Below the pieces are notes generated by a model that searched no databases, was not told the DNA's origin, and worked only from the letters and a program-made list of their open reading frames with translations. A stretch of DNA of 44,353 bases from positions 1 to 44,353 of the forward strand of contig DASWJZ010000075.1 in assembly GCA_036396875.1 (NCBI GenBank), given 5' to 3'. Source of the DNA: Propylenella sp. Its GTDB lineage: Bacteria > Pseudomonadota > Alphaproteobacteria > Rhizobiales > Afifellaceae. A program made the translations under genes and the position numbers. Shown in pieces: positions 310 to 27,741 of the stretch; position 1 is the first letter of the stretch, and each line of letters starts with the position of its first letter.

Positions 310-3300
310 CTACCCAATCTCCACATGCACGATGCCCGGCACCGCCTTGATGGCGCCGGCGACCTGCGGCGTCACGCGGTAATGTCCGGGGAGCTTAACC
401 TCGACCTCGCGACCCTGCAGCATGACGACGACGGAGACCGTTCCCTCCCCCTCATCGAGCCGGCTGGCAAGCCGCTCGATCGGCTCAGGCGCATCCAGAA
501 AAACGCGGATCGCATGGCTGCGGCGCGCCGCCACCGCTTCGAGCGGCTCGACGTTCTGAATACGCGCCCGCACCTCCTCGGCCGCCGGGTCGTATTCCGC
601 GCCGATCTGCAGAAGCAACGACTTCCCGGGCTCCAGCAGCTCGCGCCAGTCTGCGAGCCGCTCCTGATAGACCGTCGCTTCGAATTGGGCCGTCTGGTCG
701 GAGAGCGTGACGATGCCGATCCGCCCGCCGGTGCGGGTGCGCCGCTCCTGGCGCTGCACGACGGTCGCCGCGACCAGTCCGGCGAGCTGCCGCGCGCCGC
801 GGAGCCGGGCGAGGAAGCCGGCCCAGCTCAGACCCCCGCGCGCTTCCACAAGCGCCGCATAGTCCTCGATCGGATGAGCGCTGAGATACATGCCGATCGC
901 GCTGAATTCGCGCTGCAGGCGCTCCGACGGCGCCCAGGGGTCGGAATCCGCGAGGAAGAGGGCCGCCGGCTCGCCGGATGCGCCGAAAAGATCCGTGATG
1001 CCGCTCGCCGCCCGCGCCGTCCGCTCCTGCGCATAAGCGAGAATCTTGCCGATATTCGCGAAGACCCGCGCCCGCTCCGGAACCAGCCGATCGAAAGCGC
1101 CGGCCTGCACCAGGCATTCGAGCGCCTTGCGGTTGACGAGCTGCGGGTCGATGCGCGCGGCGAAATCGGCGAGATCGACGAACGGTCGGCCGCCGCGCGC
1201 CGCGACGATATGATCGACGACCTGCGTGCCGACGCCCTTCAACGCCGCGAGCGCATAGACGATCGCCCCGTCGGCGACTTCGAAGGCCGCTCCCGAGCGG
1301 TTGATGTCGGGCGGCACAATCGGGATGCCGAGGCGCCGCGCCTCGAGTCGGAATTCGTTGAGCTTGTCGGTGTTGTTCACATCGAGCGTCATCGAGGCGG
1401 CGAGGAACTCCACCGGATGGTTCGCCTTCAGATAGGCCGTCTGGTAGGCGACGACCGCATAGGCGGCGGCGTGCGACTTGTTGAAACCGTAGCTGGCGAA
1501 CTTCGCCACCAGATCGAAGATCGCCACCGCATCGGCGCGGCCGACGTTCCGCTCCACCGCGCCGTCGACGAAACGCTCCCGCTGGGCGTTCATCTCGGCC
1601 TTGATCTTCTTGCCCATAGCGCGCCGAAGCAGATCGGCCTCACCGAGCGTGTAGCCGGAAAGGGCGCGGGCGATCTCCATGACCTGCTCCTGATAGATGA
1701 TGACCCCGTAGGTCTCCTTCAGGATCGGCTCCAGCCGCGGATGCAGGTAGTCGACCGTCTCCTCGCCGTGCTTTCGGCGGTTGTAGAGCGGGATGTTGTC
1801 CATCGGGCCCGGCCGATAGAGGGCGACCAGCGCGATCAGATCCTCCAGTCGGTCCGGCTTCATGCCGACGAGGGCGCGGCGCATGCCCTGCCCTTCCACC
1901 TGGAACACGCCGACCGTCTCGCCCCGCGACAGCATCGCGAAGGTCGGCGGGTCGTCGAGCGGGAGGGCCGCGAGGTCGATTTCGGCCCCTCTGCGACGGA
2001 CGAGCTCAGCCGCCTTCTCGAGCACGGTGAGGGTCTTGAGTCCGAGGAAATCGAATTTTACCAGGCCGGCCTGCTCGACCCACTTCATGTTGAACTGAGT
2101 GACCGGCAGAGGCGAGCGCGGGTCACGGTAGAGCGGCACCAGCTCTCTCAGCGGCCGGTCGCCGATGACGATGCCCGCGGCATGCGTCGACGCATGCCGG
2201 TAAAGCCCCTCCAGCTTCATGGCGATCGTCAGCAGCCGGTCGACCACCGGCTCCTGCCGGCGCGCTTCCTCGAAACGCGGTTCGCCCGCCACCGCCTTCT
2301 CAAGCGAAACCGGATTTGCCGGATCGGCCGGCACCAGCTTGCAGAGCCGGTCCACCTGGCCATACGGCATTTCGAGAACCCGCCCGACGTCGCGGAGTGC
2401 GGCGCGCGCCTGCAGCGTCCCGAACGTGATGATCTGGGCGACCCGGTCGGCGCCGTAGCGCCGCTGCACATAATCAATCACTTCGTCGCGGCGGTCCTGG
2501 CAGAAATCGATGTCGAAATCCGGCATCGAGACGCGGTCTGGGTTCAGAAACCGCTCGAAGAGAAGGCCGAAGCGCAGCGGGTCGAGATCGGTGATGGTGA
2601 GCGCCCAGGCGACGACCGAGCCGGCGCCCGAGCCGCGCCCCGGCCCGACCGGAATTTTCTTCGCTTTCGCCCATTTGATGAAGTCGGCGACAATCAGGAA
2701 GTAGCCCGGATACTTCATCGCCTCGATGACGCCGAGTTCGAAGTCCAGACGCTCGCGGTAATCCTCCTCCTCAAAGCCCGGGGCCGTGCCTTGCGCGGCG
2801 AGCCGCCTGCCGAGCCCCTCCTTGGCCTGCCGGCGCAGTTCCTCCGCCTCTTCGCGCTCCGCCGATTCGGTGTCGGCCGCGAGCGACGCGAAGCGCGGCA
2901 GGATCGGCTGCACGATGCGTGGGCGCGTGCGGCAACGGACGGCGATTTCGACCGTATTATCCAACGCTTCCGGGGCATCGGTGAAGCGCCTCATCATTTC
3001 GGCACGGCTGCCGAAATGATGCTGCGGCGTCAGTCTTCTTCGGTCGTCGCTGGAAAGCAGCCGACCGTCCGCAATGGCGAGCAGGGCATCATGCGCCTCG
3101 AAATCCTCCGCGGTCGGAAAAAACGGCTCGTTGGTCGCCACAAGAGGCACGCCGTGGGCATAGGCGAGATCGACGAGAGCCGGTTCCGCCCGAGTCTCGA
3201 CGTCCATCCCGTGCCGCTCCAGCGCCACGTAGAGCCGGTCGCCGAACGCGGCCTTCAGGTTCGCAAGTCTCGCTTCCGCCAAGGCGTGCTCGCCCTCTGC

Positions 3301-3765
3301 GAGAATCGGGTAGAGGGGGCCGTCATGTCCGCCCGTCAAGGCGATGAGGCCAGGAGCGGCGGCGAGGGCTGCGACTGGAAGCGGCTCCGCGCGTCCGGCC
3401 TCGCCCAGATAGAACGTCGTCACAACGTTGATCAGCGCGCGATAACCCTCGTCGGTGGCGCAAAGAACGCAGAGCGGCGCCACGTGGCGCGACGGACGAC
3501 CGCTGCCCGGACGGCGCGAATCAAACTCCGCCTCCGGCTCGAACCGCACCGGCAGTTTGCAACCGATGATCGGCTGCAAGCCTGCCGCCGCGGCCTTTTC
3601 GGAGAATTCCAGCGCTCCGAAGAGGTTGGCGGTATCCGTAACGCCGACGGCCGGCATGCCGTCCGCTACGGCAAGCTTTACAAGCGCGGCGATCGGCAGC
3701 GCACCCTCGAGCAGCGAATAGGCCGAGTGGCAGTTGAGATGGATGAATCCGGGGCCTTCGGTCAC
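310..3765 (-). CDS. dnaE: DNA polymerase III alpha subunit
   Basis: 1151-aa ORF with a GTG start. N-terminal PHP-domain signature FIHLNCHSAYSLLEGA and full-length DnaE-like sequence. AAGGA Shine-Dalgarno 8 nt upstream. Confidence 0.97.
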   Translation of the reverse strand: MTEGPGFIHLNCHSAYSLLEGALPIAALVKLAVADGMPAVGVTDTANLFGALEFSEKAAAAGLQPIIGCKLPVRFEPEAEFDSRRPGSGRPSRHVAPLCVLCATDEGYRALINVVTTFYLGEAGRAEPLPVAALAAAPGLIALTGGHDGPLYPILAEGEHALAEARLANLKAAFGDRLYVALERHGMDVETRAEPALVDLAYAHGVPLVATNEPFFPTAEDFEAHDALLAIADGRLLSSDDRRRLTPQHHFGSRAEMMRRFTDAPEALDNTVEIAVRCRTRPRIVQPILPRFASLAADTESAEREEAEELRRQAKEGLGRRLAAQGTAPGFEEEDYRERLDFELGVIEAMKYPGYFLIVADFIKWAKAKKIPVGPGRGSGAGSVVAWALTITDLDPLRFGLLFERFLNPDRVSMPDFDIDFCQDRRDEVIDYVQRRYGADRVAQIITFGTLQARAALRDVGRVLEMPYGQVDRLCKLVPADPANPVSLEKAVAGEPRFEEARRQEPVVDRLLTIAMKLEGLYRHASTHAAGIVIGDRPLRELVPLYRDPRSPLPVTQFNMKWVEQAGLVKFDFLGLKTLTVLEKAAELVRRRGAEIDLAALPLDDPPTFAMLSRGETVGVFQVEGQGMRRALVGMKPDRLEDLIALVALYRPGPMDNIPLYNRRKHGEETVDYLHPRLEPILKETYGVIIYQEQVMEIARALSGYTLGEADLLRRAMGKKIKAEMNAQRERFVDGAVERNVGRADAVAIFDLVAKFASYGFNKSHAAAYAVVAYQTAYLKANHPVEFLAASMTLDVNNTDKLNEFRLEARRLGIPIVPPDINRSGAAFEVADGAIVYALAALKGVGTQVVDHIVAARGGRPFVDLADFAARIDPQLVNRKALECLVQAGAFDRLVPERARVFANIGKILAYAQERTARAASGITDLFGASGEPAALFLADSDPWAPSERLQREFSAIGMYLSAHPIEDYAALVEARGGLSWAGFLARLRGARQLAGLVAATVVQRQERRTRTGGRIGIVTLSDQTAQFEATVYQERLADWRELLEPGKSLLLQIGAEYDPAAEEVRARIQNVEPLEAVAARRSHAIRVFLDAPEPIERLASRLDEGEGTVSVVVMLQGREVEVKLPGHYRVTPQVAGAIKAVPGIVHVEIG

Positions 3766-3887
3766 AATTCATTCCTTTGAGCCCGTGCTTAGACCCGAGA
3801 GCACGTCCGGGCCAGCGGCGGTACCGGCAATCCCCGTGTCTTTCACCGCGCCACGGCCGCTCGATCCTTTGCGCCGCCGGCTTTTTC

Positions 3888-4646
3888 CTACCCCGCCTTG
3901 GCCGGGACGATCGCCCCATCCTCGATCGTCACCGTCCGATCCATTTCAGCTGCGAGCGTGTAATTGTGGGTCGCGAAGAGCGCAGCGAGCCCGGATTCCC
4001 TCACCAGGACTTTCAGCGCCGCAAACACGTGACCCGATGTCTTCGGATCGAGATTGCCGGTCGGCTCGTCGGCAAGGAGGAGCCGCGGCGCATTGGCCAC
4101 CGCCCGGGCGATTGCGACGCGCTGCTGCTCGCCGCCCGACAGCTCCGCCGGGCGGTGCGTCGCGCGCTGGTCGACGCGGAGATACGCGAGCAGCTCGCGT
4201 CCCCTTTTTTCCGCCTCCCTGCGGCCGAGGCCTGCAATCATCTGCGGCAGCACCACGTTTTCGAGCGCGGAGAATTCCGGCAGCAGATGATGGAACTGAT
4301 AGACAAAGCCGATGTGCGTGCGCCGAAGCGCCGTCCTGGCGTCGTCGCCGAGCGTCGAGGCGGCTTCGCCGCCGATGAACACCTCGCCTGAATCCGGGTG
4401 CTCCAGCAGCCCCGCGATGTGGAGAAGCGTCGACTTGCCGGCGCCCGACGGCGCTACCAGCGCTACCATCTCCCCGCTGGCGACCGCCAGATTTGCGCCC
4501 TTGAGGACCGGCAATGGACCGGAGCCTGTGCGATACGCGCGCGAAACGTTCTCAAGTGCCAGCGCGCTTTTCAAAGCCGCACCTTTGAGGGCTCCGCCGG
4601 GCGACGGGCTGTCCGCGCCTGGTACTGAGCCGGCCTCGTCACTCAT
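3888..4646 (-). CDS. lolD: lipoprotein-releasing ABC transporter ATP-binding protein
   Basis: 252 aa from the internal ATG (MSDEAGS...). Walker [12 protein letters not shown] signature [14 protein letters not shown], Walker B LLLADEPT. Its ATG overlaps the permease stop (ATGA at 4643-4646). The 662-aa track ORF is an upstream extension running across the permease gene in another frame. Confidence 0.9.
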
Positions 4647-5962
4647 TCGTAGCGCAGCGCCTCGACCGGATCGAGCCGCGCCGCCCGCCAGGCCGGGTAG
4701 AGCGTCGCCAGGAACGACAGCACGAGCGCCATCAGTACGATTGCCGCAGTCTCCGCCGGATCCATGTCGGCCGGCAGCGTCGACAGGAAATAAAGCTCCG
4801 GCGCGAAGACCTCCGTCCGGGTGAGCCAGGACACGACCTGTCGGAGCGGCTCCACATTCGTGCTGATCAGCATGCCGATCAGCAGGCCGGCGAGCGTGCC
4901 GACCGTCCCGATGCTTGCCCCGGTGATGAAGAACACGCGCAGGATCGCTCCCTTCGTCGCACCCATCGTGCGGAGGATCGCGATATCCCGTCCCTTGTCC
5001 TTCACCAGCATGATGAGCCCGGAGATGATGTTGAGGGCGGCCACCAGCACGATCAATGTGAGAATCACGAACATCACATTCCGCTCGACCTCGAGCGCAT
5101 TGAAGAACGTGACATTGCGCGTCCGCCAGTCGGTGGAAAAGACCGGGCGTTCGGCCGCCTCTTCGACCGAGGCGCGCAGCGATCCGACCTGATCCGGATC
5201 GTCGAGAAAGACTTCGATCGCCTGCGCCGCATCGGGGCTGTTGAAATAAAGCATTGCCTCGGAGAGCGGCATAAAGACATAGGTCGAATCGTATTCCGAC
5301 ATTCCGATCTGGAAGATGGCGACGACCGGGTACGCCTTTACCCGCGGCGCGGACCCCATCGGCGTGATCGCGCCGCGCGGACTGATGAGCGTCAGCCGAT
5401 CGCCCATATTGAGTCCCAGCGAGTTGGCGAGTCCCCGTCCGATGGCCACCCCGCCGGAATTGTCGAAATCGATGAGGCCGCCGCCATTCTCGACGGTGCC
5501 GGCGACCTTCTCCACTCCGAGAAGGTCGGGCCCGCGGACGCCTCGGACGAGAACGCCGGAGCTGCCGCCGCTCGGCCCCGAGGCAAGCGCCTGGCCTTCG
5601 ATGATGGGCATCGCCGACTTCACGCCGGGAACGGCCGAGATGCGTTCGGCGACGGCGTTGTAGTCGGTCAGCTCGGTGTCGACCGGTTGCACGATCACGT
5701 GGCCGTTGATGCCAAGAATCTTGTCGAGCAGCTCCGCCCGGAAGCCGTTCATCACGGCCATGACCACGACCAGCGTCGCCACCCCCAGCATGATACCGAG
5801 GAAGGAGAAGACGGCGATCACTGAAATGAACGCCTCCTTCCGCCGCGGCCTCAGGTAGCGGAGGGCAAGCATCCACTCGAAGGACGAAAAGGGCCTGGTT
5901 GTCCTCGCCGAGGCTGCCGCCGTCTCCGCCATGTCAGGGGCTTCCGCCGACGGAATGGACAA
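4643..5962 (-). CDS. lipoprotein-releasing ABC transporter permease, LolC/LolE family
   Basis: 439-aa ORF with an N-terminal TM helix ([26 protein letters not shown]), a large periplasmic domain and a C-terminal FtsX-like three-helix bundle, directly upstream of lolD. An alternative start at 5932 (MAETAAA) would remove the 29-nt overlap with proS. Confidence 0.88.
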
Positions 5963-23398: not shown

Positions 23399-24391
23399 TC
23401 AGCCTTCCCTGTCGCCGGTCTCAGAGTCACGGTCGGAGCGGGGCTGCGCGGCACGGTCCTCACCGCTCCGGCGCTCCGGCGGCTGGACCTTTGCGGAATG
23501 CCCCTTTGGCTGTCCCGCGGGCTCGCCGACCGCGCGAGCGGCGGCTTCGTCCGCCCGGCCGGTTGGATCGACGCGTCCGATCTTTTGCGCCTCGGTTGCA
23601 GGGCCGCGCGGGTCAGCGCCACTCGCCTTTGGAGCACCTCCGGCGCGGCGTGCCTGCTTTGCTCGAAGGAGTTCGCCCGGAGGATAGCTTTTCTCCGCCG
23701 CCGGCGGAGTGGGCGCGGACGGCGCGGCGCCGGCGGACCGCCCGGCGTCTGCTCCGTAGCGGCCCTCGGGCGGGACGTCGTCCGCGGCGTAGTCGATTTC
23801 CTTTAGCGAGGTAAGACCGGTGATCGGCATCGAATATTGGCGTCCGTTCTGTGGCCCGGGCGGGGGCCGCTCGTCTCGGGCAAAGGCGTCGAGCAGCGCC
23901 TCGAAGACTTCGCCGGTCAGATCCTCGTAGGTATCCTTCGAGACCTGGACCATCGGCGCATTCACGCAGGCGCCAAGGCATTCGACCTCCTCCCACGACA
24001 GCGCGCCGTCAGCCGAACGGTGGTGCGGATGCGGATGGATGCGCGCGCGGCAGATATCGATCAGCTCGCCGGCGCCGCGCAGCATGCAGGGCGTAGTGCC
24101 GCACACCTGGATATGCGCCTTCGAGCCAACCGGCTCGAGGTGGAACATCGTGTAGAAAGTGGCGACTTCGAGAACGCGGATTAGCGGCATGTCGAGCATT
24201 TTGGCGACACTCTCGATTGCCGGTCTCGTCAGCCAGCCCTCCTGGTCCTGTGCCCGCCAGAGAAGCTGGATGACCGCCGAGGCCTGCCGTCCTGCCGGGA
24301 ATTTGGCGATTATCCGCTCCGCCCAGGCGCGGTTCTCCTGGGTGAAGGCAAAGGTATCAGGCTGCGCTTCCGCGAGGCGACGGACGGCCAT
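23399..24391 (-). CDS. nuoE: NADH-quinone oxidoreductase subunit E with a long low-complexity C-terminal tail
   Basis: 330 aa. The thioredoxin-like 2Fe-2S domain has the [11 protein letters not shown] and [10 protein letters not shown] cysteines. Residues from about 201 to 330 are Ala/Pro/Arg/Gly-rich. Confidence 0.93.
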
Positions 24392-24544
24392 GAGGCTCGA
24401 AATCCAAAGTACAGCGGGCTTGGTTTTGCAGCGGTTCTAGCATTTGCAGTGCGAAAGGCCAGTGTCGCATCGCGACATGATGCGGCGGGAGCCGGGTCTC
24501 CCTCTGGTCTTGTTTCAGCACCGGCAGGAAACCGGCGGGCGCCG

Positions 24545-25735
24545 TCAACGATCCACCTCGCCGAACACGATATCGATCGAGCCGAGGACGGCGGACACGT
24601 CGGCCAGCATGTGGCCGCGGCACATGAAATCGATTGCCTGGAGATGAGCGAAACCGGGCGGGCGAATCTTGCACCGGTAGGGGCGGTTCGAGCCGTCGGA
24701 GACAAGATAGACTCCGAACTCGCCCTTCGGCGCCTCGACGGCCGCGTAAACCTCGCCTTCCGGCACGTGAAAGCCCTCCGTGTAAAGCTTGAAATGATGG
24801 ATCAGCGCTTCCATCGAGCGCTTCATCTCGCCCCGCTTCGGGGGCACGATCTTGTTGTCGACAATGGAGACCGGCCCGGCGCCGTCGGCCGAAAGAAGCT
24901 TTTCCACGCACTGCTTCATGATGCGCGTCGCCTCCCGCATTTCGATCATGCGGATCACGTATCGGTCATAATTGTCGCCGTTTTTGCCGACTGGAATATC
25001 GAACTCCAGCTCGGGATAGCACTCGTAAGGCTGCGCCTTGCGCAGGTCCCATGCGGCGCCCGACCCACGCACCATCACGCCGGAGAACCCCCACTTCCAG
25101 GCATCGTCGAGGCTCACCACGCCGATGTCGACATTGCGCTGCTTGAAAATACGGTTCTCGGTCAGAAGCTCTTCGAGATCGTCGCATACTTTCAGGAACG
25201 GATCGCAGAACGCGCCGATGTCCTCGACGAGTTTCGGCGTCAGATCCTGGTGCACTCCACCCGGCCGAAAATAGGCGGCGTGCATGCGCGAGCCCGAGGC
25301 GCGCTCGTAGAAGACCATGAGCTTCTCGCGCTCCTCAAAGCCCCAGAGGGGCGGCGTGAGCGCTCCCACATCCATGGCCTGCGTGGTGACGTTGAGGAGG
25401 TGCGACAGGAGTCGTCCGATCTCCGAGTAGAGGACGCGGATGAGCTGGCCGCGCTTCGGCACGTCGACGCCGAGCAGGCGTTCCACCGCCAGACACCAGG
25501 CATGCTCCTGGTTCATCGGAGCCACATAATCGAGCCGGTCGAAGTAGGGCAGCGCCTGCAGGTAGGTCTTCGACTCGATCAGCTTCTCGGTGCCGCGGTG
25601 CAGGAGCCCGATATGCGGGTCGACCCGCTCGACAACCTCTCCGTCGAGCTCGAGCACCAGCCGCAGAACGCCGTGCGCCGCCGGATGCTGCGGGCCGAAG
25701 TTGATGTTGAAGTTGCGAACGTCGGCTTCAGGCAT
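24545..25735 (-). CDS. nuoD: NADH-quinone oxidoreductase subunit D
   Basis: 396 aa from the internal ATG ([33 protein letters not shown]...). The track ORF's 75 extra upstream codons read through the heptamer repeat. Confidence 0.96.
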
Positions 25736-25764
25736 GGGGAGTAGCGAGGGGGCCAGTCGCAAGA

Positions 25765-25794
25765 AGTGAGTGGTGAGTAGTGAGTAGTGAGTGG
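25765..25794. repeat. inverted-repeat arm, four tandem heptamers + GG
   Basis: Plus strand reads AGTGAGT GGTGAGT AGTGAGT AGTGAGT GG. Confidence 0.9.
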
Positions 25795-25817
25795 AAAGGC
25801 GCCAGTTCCATCGTCTC

Positions 25818-26228
25818 TCAGACCTCCGAGTATCGCTTCTGCAGTGCCCGAATATACGTCCGCAGCATCTTGCCGAGTGACTCGCAACTTGAGAGCAGCG
25901 CGCGAGTCGTTGCCGGACCCGCGATCCCAACCCTTTCGGCCAGCAGAAGATGGGTCTCAAGCTCTTTCAGGGAACCCTGCGACATTCGGGAAAACTGGAT
26001 GAAAGAGCGCGTCTGCTCGCGCCCATGGCCCTCAGCGATGTTCGCGGCGATGGATGCCGCTGACCTTCGAATCTGGGAGGTCATTCCAAAGAGCTCGTCC
26101 TTAGGAAAGTTTTTCGTCAGGCGATAGCAGGCCTCTGCGATCGTCATGGCGTGCTGCCATACGCGCAAGTCGCGATATGAACTGACCGCAGTCCTCTCCG
26201 CAGTCTGTTCCCACTCACTATTCACCAC
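25818..26228 (-). CDS. four-helix-bundle protein (23S rRNA intervening-sequence protein family, Avd-like)
   Basis: 136 aa with a GTG start. Family-typical motifs: [42 protein letters not shown] and [14 protein letters not shown]. The start codon lies inside the right repeat arm. Confidence 0.85.
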
Positions 26229-26240
26229 TCACTACTCACT
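26211..26240. repeat. inverted-repeat arm, partner of 25765-25794
   Basis: Plus strand reads CCACTCACTATTCACCACTCACTACTCACT. Its reverse complement is AGTGAGT AGTGAGT GGTGAAT AGTGAGT GG. Pairing with the other arm gives 27 Watson-Crick pairs plus 1 G-U out of 30. Confidence 0.9.
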
Positions 26241-26852
26241 CTTCTTCTCATCCCCCGGAAGCGCGTAATCCGGCCCCTCCCACGGCGAGAGGAAATCGAA
26301 GTTGCGGTACTCCTGCGGCAGCTTCACCGGCTCGTAGACGACGCGGCGCTTCTCGGCGTCGTAGCGCACCTCGACAAAACCGGTGAGCGGAAAATCCTTG
26401 CGAAGCGGGTGCCCGCGGAACCCGTAATCCGTGAGAATCCGGCGGAAGTCGGGGTTGCCGGAGAACAGGATGCCGTAGAGGTCGTAGGCCTCGCGCTCGA
26501 ACCACGTCGCGGCGGGAAAGACCGCGCTGATTGAAGGTACCGCCGTTTCCGCGTCGGTCTCGATCTTGACGCGGACGCGGTGGTTCCGGCGCGGGCTGAG
26601 GAGATGATAGACGACATCGAAACGCTTCTCGCGCTGCGGCCAGTCGACGCCGCACAGGTCGATGAACGACACGAACCGAAGCTCCGGATCATCGCGCAGC
26701 GCCGCAATCACCTCGACGATCGCCTCCGGCGCGACCCTGACCGTCAGCTCCTGGTACGCCACCTCCTGCGCAAGTATTCGCGACCCGAGCACTTCGGCGA
26801 CACGCAGGGCGATGTCGTCGAGGCCGCGCTTCTCCGGCGAATACTGGTTCAT
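26232..26852 (-). CDS. nuoC: NADH-quinone oxidoreductase subunit C
   Basis: 206 aa with the conserved ...[12 protein letters not shown]...[29 protein letters not shown]... region. Its last two codons and the TAG lie inside the repeat arm. Confidence 0.95.
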
Positions 26853-26855
26853 GCT

Positions 26856-26880
26856 CTAGCGCTCAATCGTGCCAGTGCCG
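26856..26880. repeat. direct-repeat copy of the nuoB 3' end (partner 27157-27181)
   Basis: ctagcgctcaatcgtgccagtgccg versus ctagcgctcgatcgtgccggtgcgg: 22/25 identical, including the complement of the nuoB TAG stop. The copy lies 3 nt upstream of the nuoC ATG. Confidence 0.8.
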
Positions 26881-26902
26881 GGGACGACGAGCGGGCTGCC
26901 GC

Positions 26903-27154
26903 TCACCTGTGCTCCTCCAATTCACGAACGCGGCGCTCCAGGGCTTCGATCCGTTCCTCGAATTCTCCCGTCACGAGCTTGCTGAGAAGGCTATCCGCCG
27001 ATAGCGCCTGCTTGAAGGATGCTTGCGCCGCTTCCAATGCGATTGGCCGGCGGTCCACGGTGTCAAAGCGTGTATCTACTCGGTCAAACCGGGCCGCGAT
27101 CTCGGCGCGCATTTCGCGCAGCAATGGAAGGATCATGTCGGACGGGTCGGCCAT
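26903..27154 (-). CDS. hypothetical 83-aa coiled-coil protein between nuoB and nuoC
   Basis: MADPSDMILPLLREMRAEIAARFDRVDTRFDTVDRRPIALEAAQASFKQALSADSLLSKLVTGEFEERIEALERRVRELEEHR. The ATG lies 2 nt after the nuoB stop. Codon structure is clean (59/83 codons end in G/C by hand count). No TM helix and no recognised domain. Confidence 0.6.
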   Translation of the reverse strand: MADPSDMILPLLREMRAEIAARFDRVDTRFDTVDRRPIALEAAQASFKQALSADSLLSKLVTGEFEERIEALERRVRELEEHR

Positions 27155-27156
27155 AT

Positions 27157-27741
27157 CTAGCGCTCGATCGTGCCGGTGCGGCGGATCTTCTTCTGCAGCA
27201 GCAGCACGCCGTAAAGCAGCGCCTCCGCGGACGGCGGGCAGCCCGGCACGTAGATGTCGACCGGCACGACCCGGTCGCAGCCGCGGACCACCGAATAGGA
27301 ATAGTGATAGTAGCCGCCGCCGTTGGCGCAGGAGCCCATGGAGATGACGTAGCGCGGCTCCGGCATCTGGTCGTAGACCTTGCGCAGCGCCGGCGCCATC
27401 TTGTTGCAGAGCGTGCCGGCGACGATCATCACGTCCGACTGCCGCGGACTGGCGCGCGGCGCGAAGCCAAAACGCTCGGCGTCGTAGCGCGGCATCGACA
27501 TCTGCATCATCTCCACCGCGCAGCAGGCAAGCCCGAAGGTCATCCACATGAGCGAGCCGGTGCGAGCCCAGGTGATCAGCTCGTCGGTCGAGGTGACGAG
27601 CCAGCCCCTGTCGGCGAGCTCGTCGTTCACCTCGGTGAAGAACGGATCTCGGCGCTTGTCGGCCGGCAGGTAGCCGGCTTCCGTCCGTTCAGGGTGAGGG
27701 CCCGGTTCAATCAGTCCCATTCGAGCGCGCCCTTCTTCCAT
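27157..27741 (-). CDS. nuoB: NADH-quinone oxidoreductase subunit B
   Basis: 194-aa ORF with the conserved [22 protein letters not shown]...[14 protein letters not shown]...VPGCPP 4Fe-4S (N2) ligands. An alternative ATG at 27720 (MGLIEPG) gives 187 aa. Both starts overlap the nuoA end. Confidence 0.93.

Follow-up and report, generated by a model that had tools for sequence, protein, structure and literature searches.

The nuoC-nuoD cassette

The window analyzed here is a stretch of 44,353 nt from an alphaproteobacterium, Propylenella sp. (contig DASWJZ010000075.1), and contains a complex I (nuo) operon on its minus strand. Between nuoC and nuoD, which the listing of open reading frames (ORFs) and Pfam give as the immediate neighbors, lies a cassette formed by a gene for a 136-aa protein and two flanking arms built of tandem heptamers in inverted orientation (Table 1). 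A previous sequence-only reading of this DNA had reported the arrangement, and the observation is confirmed: nuoC, the 136-aa ORF, nuoD, and both arms are all present, each where it had been placed. Every arm consists of four RGTGART heptamers followed by GG. The cassette measures 476 nt with its arms and 416 nt between them, its 3′ arm ends 29 nt before the ATG of nuoD, and its GC content is 57%, versus 64.5% for the window. The upstream host gene runs into the cassette, since nuoC ends as ...GAT GAG AAG AAG AGT GAG TAG and the 5′ arm contains its last two codons, its TAG, a second in-frame stop (TGA), and the GTG of the cassette ORF (26226-26228). The nuoC stop and this GTG are in the same frame with only the extra stop between them (TAG TGA GTG), and reading the minus strand bears out that the promoter-proximal arm supplies the end of nuoC as well as the start of the ORF, as had been described. 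No promoter or terminator consensus belonging to the cassette was found when it was scanned for them. The location is not a 23S rRNA gene, given that nuoC and nuoD flank the cassette, and the region 24500-27500 gave no Rfam match at E values up to 1.

The two arms pair over 30 nt with 27 Watson-Crick pairs, 1 G-U pair, and 2 A-C mismatches (arm positions 8 and 20), and our recount agrees with the 27 plus 1 pairs and the 416-nt loop of the sequence-only reading. An inverted-repeat search extended the arms to 33 nt with 88% complementarity (inward to 26208 and 25797). The heptamer pattern was found only in the arms (6 overlapping matches, 3 in each, versus 0 expected from 100 shuffles), and these are the sole period-7 arrays within the window. 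In the minimum free energy (MFE) fold of 25740-26260 on the minus strand, a calculation already proposed on the basis of the sequence, the arms are paired and the helix is prolonged outward beyond them into GGGGG/CCCCC. The energy of this fold is -216 kcal/mol (z = -3.6), and none of 100 shuffles was as good. The outer extension is local to some nuo loci and does not represent a general terminal motif.

Table 1. Features of the cassette and its host genes in the window.
Feature	Position	Strand	Remarks
nuoC (30-kDa subunit), upstream host gene	26232..26852	-	PF00329
nuoD (49-kDa subunit), downstream host gene	24545..25735	-	PF00346; ATG at 25735
Cassette ORF, 136 aa, GTG start	25818..26228	-	PF05635, TIGR02436, NF008911; 2GSC match; dN/dS; pI
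5′ (promoter-proximal) arm	26211..26240	-	Sense AGTGAGT AGTGAGT GGTGAAT AGTGAGT GG
3′ (promoter-distal) arm	25765..25794	-	Sense CC ACTCACT ACTCACT ACTCACC ACTCACT; complements 5′ arm
nuoC stop codon TAG	26232..26234	-	Made by first/second heptamer of 5′ arm
GCG codon at place of L003/L004 GTG start	26199..26201	-	Relatives compared
Outer helix extension, 3′ side (TCTT..GGCCCCC)	25745..25764	-	Pairs with 26241-26256 (GGGGGATGAGAAGAAG) in MFE fold
Outer helix extension, 5′ side	26241..26256	-	Within nuoC 3′ end, codons G-D-E-K-K

The cassette protein

The product of the cassette ORF had been assigned to PF05635/TIGR02436, and the profile search upheld this with scores above the curated cut-offs: 123.7 bits for PF05635 (E 4.7e-36; cut-off 33.8), 121.2 bits for TIGR02436 (E 2.1e-35; cut-off 24), and 164.9 bits for the NCBIfam subfamily NF008911 (E 9.1e-49; cut-off 137). 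Genes of this family appear in public annotations as “four helix bundle protein” or “S23 ribosomal protein,” and a single protein search recovered 6,603 homologs at E below 1e-10. The closest solved structure is XCC0516 (PDB 2GSC; E 2.1e-19 over residues 16-132). The protein is basic, with an isoelectric point (pI) of 9.9 for the core of the window copy and a family median of 9.1. No family match was found among the PADLOC models at E up to 0.01, and a role as an anti-phage defense component was rejected; a search for phage relatives of the protein gave no hits, and a phage origin was also discarded.

The start of the gene differs among close relatives. Loci L003 and L004, the nearest ones, begin at a GTG just inside the arm, where the window has GCG. 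Because of this replacement, the GTG within the arm is the only start in the window copy that retains helix 1, and the canonical start of the cassette has been lost in the window lineage. Many other relatives also start within the arm (N-termini MANGEW and MVNGEL), while metagenome gene callers give a 109-aa product from Met28 instead. The dN/dS of the cassette was computed on its core only, from the conserved SYRDL onward (some high-scoring segment pairs ran through in-frame stops in the arm), and amounts to 0.05-0.11, values comparable to those of NuoC and NuoD; for the window copy against L003 and L004 it is 0.05-0.07. By these ratios, the cassette ORF is under purifying selection.

The nuoC-nuoD junction in relatives

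The genes for the near-identical proteins P0001 and P0002 and for the 75%-identical P0004 and P0027 all lie in the nuoC-nuoD junction and have RGTGART arms (loci L001-L004). We fetched 62 cassette-bearing nuoC-nuoD junctions, population duplicates included. A scan of species-representative genomes with the subfamily alignment gave 80 loci, among which the order nuoC, cassette, nuoD was found in 22 complete loci and in the partial L034. The carriers include Bradyrhizobium, Rhodopseudomonas rhenobacensis, Methylobacterium, Bosea, Rhizobium leguminosarum, R. tropici, Pseudaminobacter, Mesorhizobium hawassense, Hyphomicrobium, Mongoliimonas, Cucumibacter, Terricaulis, and a metagenome-assembled genome of the Parvularculaceae. 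In every nuo case the C terminus of NuoC (...GDEKAK) leads directly into the 5′ arm, with the nuoC stop of the relatives inside the first heptamers or just before them, and the 3′ arm ends 10-60 nt ahead of the nuoD ATG. The heptamer unit varies by lineage (GGCGAAT, GGTGAAT/GGTGAGT, or GGCAGTA/GGCAGTC), and both arms switch together. The arms of the orthologous copies are both complementary and conserved, and the observations that the sequence-only reading had named as refuting its interpretation were not made. More distant relatives of the cassette do occupy sites other than nuoC-nuoD.

A metagenome scan with the conserved N terminus of NuoD yielded 74 usable junctions at similar NuoD distances. 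Nearly half (35) are empty, with nuoC and nuoD tightly spaced or overlapping (e.g., TGATG), 7 hold an intact cassette with arms, and the remaining 32, classed by gap length, hold other content, including the cassette relics L131 and L140. The passengers found at nuoC-nuoD comprise an FlK-type thioesterase, GFA, a sulfotransferase, a lumazine-binding-like protein, and small membrane ORFs. The alphaproteobacterial nuoC-nuoD junction is a hot spot for small passenger genes. At L028 (Hyphomicrobium), a single junction contains an FlK-like ORF, a GFA-like ORF, and the four-helix-bundle cassette in a stack.

Four of the 74 metagenome junctions contain relics. L115 has a solo 3′ arm (TATTCGC x4) and L149 and L131 have a solo 5′ arm, all three lacking an ORF, and L140 has a decayed ORF within degenerate arms. 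Outside this set, the cassette ORFs of L033 (R. leguminosarum Tri-43) and L039 are truncated or frameshifted. L121 carries a possible footprint of one to two units, AGCGAATAGCG, directly before the nuoD ATG.

On the other hand, three population samples in which identical proteins were found on 24, 18, and 12 contigs always had them at nuoC-nuoD with identical arms; there was no arm polymorphism within these samples and, with a single context for each protein, no sign of recent transposition. The divergence of the cassette follows that of the host only moderately (Mantel r 0.47; 0.64 for NuoC versus NuoD). Nuo-located cassettes cluster in the protein tree, with 9 site changes (Fitch) versus about 20 at random, and the tree rejects their strict monophyly, although it rests on 115 aa, a length at which relocation and noise are not separable. 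We conclude that the cassette has long been stably resident at the nuo site in several alphaproteobacterial orders, and that the junction changes on long time scales and is stable on short ones. A recent or unique insertion is not supported, since the cassette recurs at this site in several orders and identical proteins occur in one context.

Such long residence might also be expected of an accessory gene domesticated by the alphaproteobacterial nuo operon, for instance a factor acting on the nuo mRNA or in complex I biogenesis, with the arms as a regulatory hairpin and the whole no longer mobile or selfish. The position and orientation conserved across several orders, selection comparable to that on NuoC, the significant clustering in the tree, the stability in populations, and the divergence that tracks that of the host would all fit. 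However, relatives at equal NuoD distance have empty TGATG junctions or unrelated passengers (FlK thioesterase, GFA, or sulfotransferase) in its place, pseudogenes and solo arms occur at the nuo site itself, the same module is found in unrelated operons of other phyla and in rRNA (see below), and the window copy is devoid of the canonical start. Domestication seems quite unlikely to us.

The same module in other operons and phyla

Complementary flanks are found far beyond the nuo operon. Homolog loci from at least eight phyla were compared, and in 71 of 83 the flanks of the gene were more complementary than in every shuffle; the mean complementarity score was 20.2 within a locus versus 8.9 between loci. 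The sampled groups were Alphaproteobacteria, Cyanobacteria, Acidobacteria, Planctomycetes, Chloroflexi, Bacteroidota, Nitrospirota, and others, with lineage-specific heptamers such as GGGAGTA, GGGTGTA, GGGAACA, GGGAATA, GGGGCTA, GGGCTTA, AGGATTC, and others. In all 71 loci, the arm upstream of the gene is the G-rich one. The arms also fit the gene closely: the 5′ arm lies about 33 nt from the conserved SYRDL codon, and the 3′ arm follows the stop after about 10 nt. In 62 of 71 loci, 70% or more of the arm positions are paired to the opposite arm in the MFE fold. The arms covary and, in these folds, have a predicted pairing. The gene-plus-heptamer-arm module is thus a general one across phyla, and the cassette proposed for the window was right in this sense: the same unit is found between many co-directional gene pairs of many phyla.

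Beside the gene, the density of period-7 arrays is 15 times that in the rest of the same loci. Those located farther away matched the unit of the cassette of their own genome in 19 of 26 cases, versus 8% for the units of other genomes, and several are tight hairpins devoid of an ORF. The divergence of the heptamer unit and that of the protein are positively correlated (rho 0.29), a correlation confounded by shared ancestry.

Several copies deviate from the usual structure. Five loci of Mesorhizobium and Hyphomicrobiales (L036, L043, L044, L054, and L066) have octamer arms (GGGGAGTA / GGGCAGTA) and no heptamers. They mark another recurrent site, between a glutamine-synthetase-like gene and an FAD-dependent oxidase (by Pfam in L036); in L043, L044, L054, and L066 the neighbors at this type of site were recognized by matching length only. 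In Phormidium sp. FACHB-1136 (L018), arrays of the cassette units GGGAGTC/GGGAGTA surround an unrelated 207-aa ORF without family match (86-949), and further such arrays lie inside an ORF of 988 aa (948-3914), where they are translated as ESGVGSR repeats. Plasmids alpha (L165, 2498-2920) and gamma (L166, 2504-2920) of Nostoc sp. PCC 7120 carry copies with the same four-helix-bundle protein accession, located directly after ISL3 transposase sequence (annotated in gamma, homologous and unannotated in alpha). These copies retain the 3′ heptamer array only (CTCTGCC units) and differ by exactly one 7-nt unit.

At sites other than nuo, 36 of 53 loci have both neighbors in the same direction as the cassette, versus 25% expected, and the upstream ORF typically terminates within the arm. 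Functionally linked neighbor pairs include pgk-tpiA, the two CoA-transferase subunits scoA-scoB, sbcD-sbcC, accC-prmA, nrtR-nadE, a pyridoxal phosphate enzyme of Cys/Met metabolism with thrC, and a circularly permuted ATP-grasp protein with Alpha-E. The cassette is preferentially placed between co-directional, functionally linked genes.

A probable promoter-less cassette riding on operons

Our best overall reading, to which we assign a probability of about 0.6, is that of a promoter-less cassette that rides on operons and is of the same type as the ORF-bearing intervening sequences (IVSs) of 23S rRNA. Transcription of the cassette would occur only within the nuo mRNA, as read-through from the nuo promoter, and the arms would fold into a helix of about 30-45 bp enclosing the ORF and occluding its start codon. 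Ribosomes terminating nuoC translation within the 5′ arm (TAG TGA GTG) may transiently open the helix and allow coupled re-initiation at the cassette ORF. The closed helix would be a long duplex like the RNase III substrates of rRNA IVSs, and its cleavage would release the cassette and split the nuoABC from the nuoD-N transcripts. By analogy with the IVSs, we rate the chances that RNase III processes the cassette in vivo as slightly under even. Binding of the protein to nucleic acid is probable, with the heptamer arrays as a possible target, as suggested by three lines: it is a basic relative of Avd and XCC0516 (both described as pentamers), ORF-less hairpins in the same genomes share its unit, and protein and unit divergence are correlated. 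Recognition of the arrays by the protein is a tentative proposal, with the odds against it. At the nuo site, the cassette behaves as a long-term resident commensal and not as an active transposon.

Several observations weigh against this reading. With the start codon of the nearest relatives lost, the translation of the window copy is uncertain. The GC content at third codon positions (GC3) of the cassette is 0.69 versus 0.82-0.85 in nuoC and nuoD, and its proportion of synonymous differences (pS) is 0.59-0.75 versus 0.25-0.50 for nuoC and nuoD in the same genome pairs, figures that simple vertical co-inheritance does not account for; weak codon selection or the occasional replacement of cassettes via homologous exchange could underlie them. 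Processing by RNase III is plausible from the analogy, but the nuoC stop occupies arm positions 7-9, and a cut at the start of the first repeat, as mapped in Coxiella, would leave a non-stop nuoC mRNA. The mismatches within arms are symmetric (95 G-U versus 92 A-C), so a wobble signature of sense RNA finds no support, and arm complementarity could be maintained by a strand-symmetric process, such as unit slippage or conversion, and not by selection on the sense RNA. Stops in all three frames are present in 41% of the arms, versus 6% of mononucleotide shuffles and 36% of random heptamer arrays of the same composition, and neither these stops nor Shine-Dalgarno-like 4-mers are enriched over such random arrays. 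The arms as selected three-frame terminators or as stop-plus-Shine-Dalgarno units were rejected, because the stops follow from period 7 and composition. Finally, the cassette neither contains nor adjoins a transposase, and neither a conserved terminal motif nor a target-site duplication was found.

If periodicity alone explains the stop content, and heptamer arrays do slip (as in the Nostoc plasmids and in Coxiella), the arms might be thought of as neutral, microsatellite-like slippage products without function, their complementarity accidental or purely historical. This is very improbable and close to refuted, being contradicted by the complementary flanking arrays in 71 of 83 loci despite differing units and by the 15-fold density of arrays at the gene; the invariant polarity of the arms and the concerted change of unit in both arms at the nuo site (GGCGAAT, GGTGAGT, GGCAGTA) also speak against it.

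The symmetric mismatches fit with arms that act primarily as DNA-level sites, either terminal repeats for a recombinase or transposase supplied in trans or the result of slippage or templating, in which case the helix would be a by-product and the cassette the master of a family of hairpins similar to miniature inverted-repeat transposable elements (MITEs). Changes in number of whole heptamers (the Nostoc plasmid copies and Coxiella strains), ORF-less hairpins with the cassette unit of the same genome, the many different insertion sites across phyla, the existence of relics and empty sites, the non-monophyly of the nuo-located proteins with their 9 site changes, and the higher pS and lower GC3 than in the flanking genes all go in this direction. 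However, target-site duplication is at background rate: only 1 of 47 non-nuo loci scored at least 7, versus 2% in the background (own versus cross-locus flanks). It was rejected as a family feature for want of a general signal, although a GGCGAAG direct repeat flanks the arms at L004, L010, L027, and L030. The absence of a transposase in or beside the cassette and of a conserved terminal motif is equally unfavorable; AGAAG...CTTCT, considered as a motif like the Coxiella AGAAGA, was rejected, as it is present in only 9 and 4 of the 71 loci. Identical proteins were never found in two contexts, and the bias toward sense orientation in operons together with the G-rich-first polarity in 71 of 71 loci points to constraints at the level of the transcript. 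We consider a primarily DNA-level role of the arms unlikely, if less so than domestication, and retain the operon-riding cassette of IVS type as the best explanation.

A broader proposal is that all these elements form a single, widespread family, in which the ORF-bearing cassette is the master form, the ORF-less hairpins resembling the short tandemly repeated repetitive (STRR) sequences of cyanobacteria are derivatives, the ORF-bearing 23S rRNA IVSs are the special case in which rRNA is the host transcript, and the protein recognizes the heptamers of its own arms. It is a speculative proposal that we would not bet on, yet recognition of its own arms by the protein would explain why units are lineage specific, why both arms change in concert, and why units are shared within a genome. 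The protein would then mediate the maintenance or spread of the element or its RNA processing, which would provide a function for a very large uncharacterized family and an origin for both IVSs and STRRs.

The locus suggests that one type of element is behind the origin of ORF-bearing rRNA IVSs, the nature of the STRR hairpins in operons, and the function of one of the largest uncharacterized protein families. The comparative data yield an architecture that can be tested, a gene plus inverted heptamer arrays inserted in sense orientation inside operons, and there are named, apparently cultured carriers: Rhodopseudomonas rhenobacensis DSM 12706, Bradyrhizobium oligotrophicum, Bosea sp. OK403, Pseudaminobacter salicylatoxidans DSM 6986, and Cucumibacter marinus DSM 18995. 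In many rhizobia, a duplex of roughly 30 bp and an extra cistron between nuoC and nuoD could alter the stoichiometry of the subunits or the fate of the mRNA, and the cassette deserves recognition in annotation and operon engineering.

Other features of the nuo operon

The nuo operon of the window has a second passenger, an 83-aa coiled-coil ORF between nuoB and nuoC (26903-27154, minus strand), whose match to DUF7310 is below threshold (23.3 bits versus a cut-off of 40). On either side of it lies a direct repeat of 24 nt (26855-26878 and 27156-27179, 92% identical) that is a copy of the last 24 nt of nuoB including the stop, directly before the nuoC start. L001, L002, and L183-L187 have an ORF of 83 aa without recorded Pfam at the same place, the likeness being one of length and position only. 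In L004, from a close relative of the window organism, a Uma2-family ORF (PF05685, weak) and a 67-aa ORF lie between nuoD and nuoE (4677-5243). NuoE of the window (23399-24391, minus strand; 330 aa) has a long low-complexity C-terminal extension rich in Pro, Ala, Gly, and Arg after its 2Fe-2S thioredoxin-like domain.

Comparison with known systems

Intercistronic hairpins cut by RNase III are known from the early mRNA of phage T7, where each site is a short hairpin whose loop contains no gene. The nuo hairpin is similar in that it would be cut into separate stem-capped messages, a cleavage that is predicted here. Repetitive extragenic palindromes (REP), their mosaic elements (BIME), and MITEs resemble the cassette as small, repeated, palindromic elements whose presence between co-transcribed genes is tolerated, with ORF-less and ORF-bearing versions that have the same ends and with presence/absence variation and relics. 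They differ in that the arms of the cassette are tandem heptamer arrays and not a single palindrome, and the cassette has no target-site duplication, no RAYT or transposase, and no identical copies in different contexts.

With regard to the protein, Avd has been described as pentameric and as binding both the reverse transcriptase and RNA (PMC10053308), and XCC0516 of Xanthomonas campestris (2GSC) as a pentamer of four-helix bundles (PMC4990558). Avd (bAvd, PF22296) has a homologous four-helix-bundle fold and is also a small basic protein, and some cassette homologs weakly match PF22296; unlike Avd, the cassette protein scores only 18 with the equivalog model NF033474, versus a cut-off of 80. 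Neither a reverse transcriptase nor a template/variable repeat pair was found beside the cassette, the direct repeats in 25600-26400 being only 12-19 nt. Membership in a diversity-generating retroelement was rejected on the NF033474 score and the nuoC/nuoD neighbors. XCC0516, the closest solved structure, is a stand-alone protein entry and was compared at the level of the protein.

Heptamer hairpins between co-transcribed genes are already known as the cyanobacterial STRRs, tandem 7-bp hairpins found for example between hupS and hupL (PMC2670836), for which roles in transcript stability or translational coupling have been proposed (PMC2670836). The nuo locus has a tandem 7-bp hairpin in the same kind of position, the arms of the cyanobacterial cassettes sampled are STRR-type arrays, and ORF-less hairpins co-occur with cassettes. 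In contrast, STRRs were described as an ORF-less peculiarity of cyanobacteria, while here a conserved gene occupies the 416-nt loop and the similarity of NuoC and NuoD places the host operon in the Alphaproteobacteria. We found no link in the literature between STRR arrays and the four-helix-bundle gene family. The genome of Geobacter metallireducens is reported to have 49 elements, each of four heptanucleotides (GGACCGG) in tandem, both inside genes and between them (PMC2700814), which may be ORF-less relatives of the cassette arrays. Our literature search, the coverage of which was incomplete so that an earlier description is possible, gave no account of the gene-plus-heptamer-arm module as a general element, in operons, or in nuo.

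The closest parallel is the IVS in helix 45 of the Coxiella burnetii 23S rRNA, with 428 nt, a 28-bp terminal stem, and tandem heptamers upstream of an S23p ORF (PMC4990558). Its heptamer-built stem is cut by RNase III in vitro, the cut mapping to the start of the first repeat; the number of heptamer units differs among strains, and the ORF is reported to be decaying and probably untranslated (PMC4990558). The likeness to ORF-bearing 23S rRNA IVSs noticed by the sequence-only reading extends to size, stem, and heptamers. Like these IVSs (known also from Leptospira and Haemophilus), the nuo cassette has a PF05635-family ORF that starts at or in the stem, a similar size (476 nt including arms versus 428 nt in Coxiella), and a terminal inverted repeat of 28-30 bp with few mismatches. 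In both Coxiella and the window, tandem heptamers form the 5′ side of the stem (GACAGAT x3 versus four RGTGART), and expression without a promoter of its own, only within the host transcript, is described for Coxiella (PMC4990558) and would apply to the nuo cassette. The differences are the host transcript, which is a protein-coding operon (nuoC-nuoD) and not rRNA, the sequence of the heptamer, the purifying selection on the cassette ORF and its relatives as opposed to the decay of the Coxiella ORF, and the excision by RNase III, demonstrated in Coxiella and predicted for the nuo cassette. With these likenesses and differences side by side, we regard membership of the nuo cassette in the IVS-type class as very probable.

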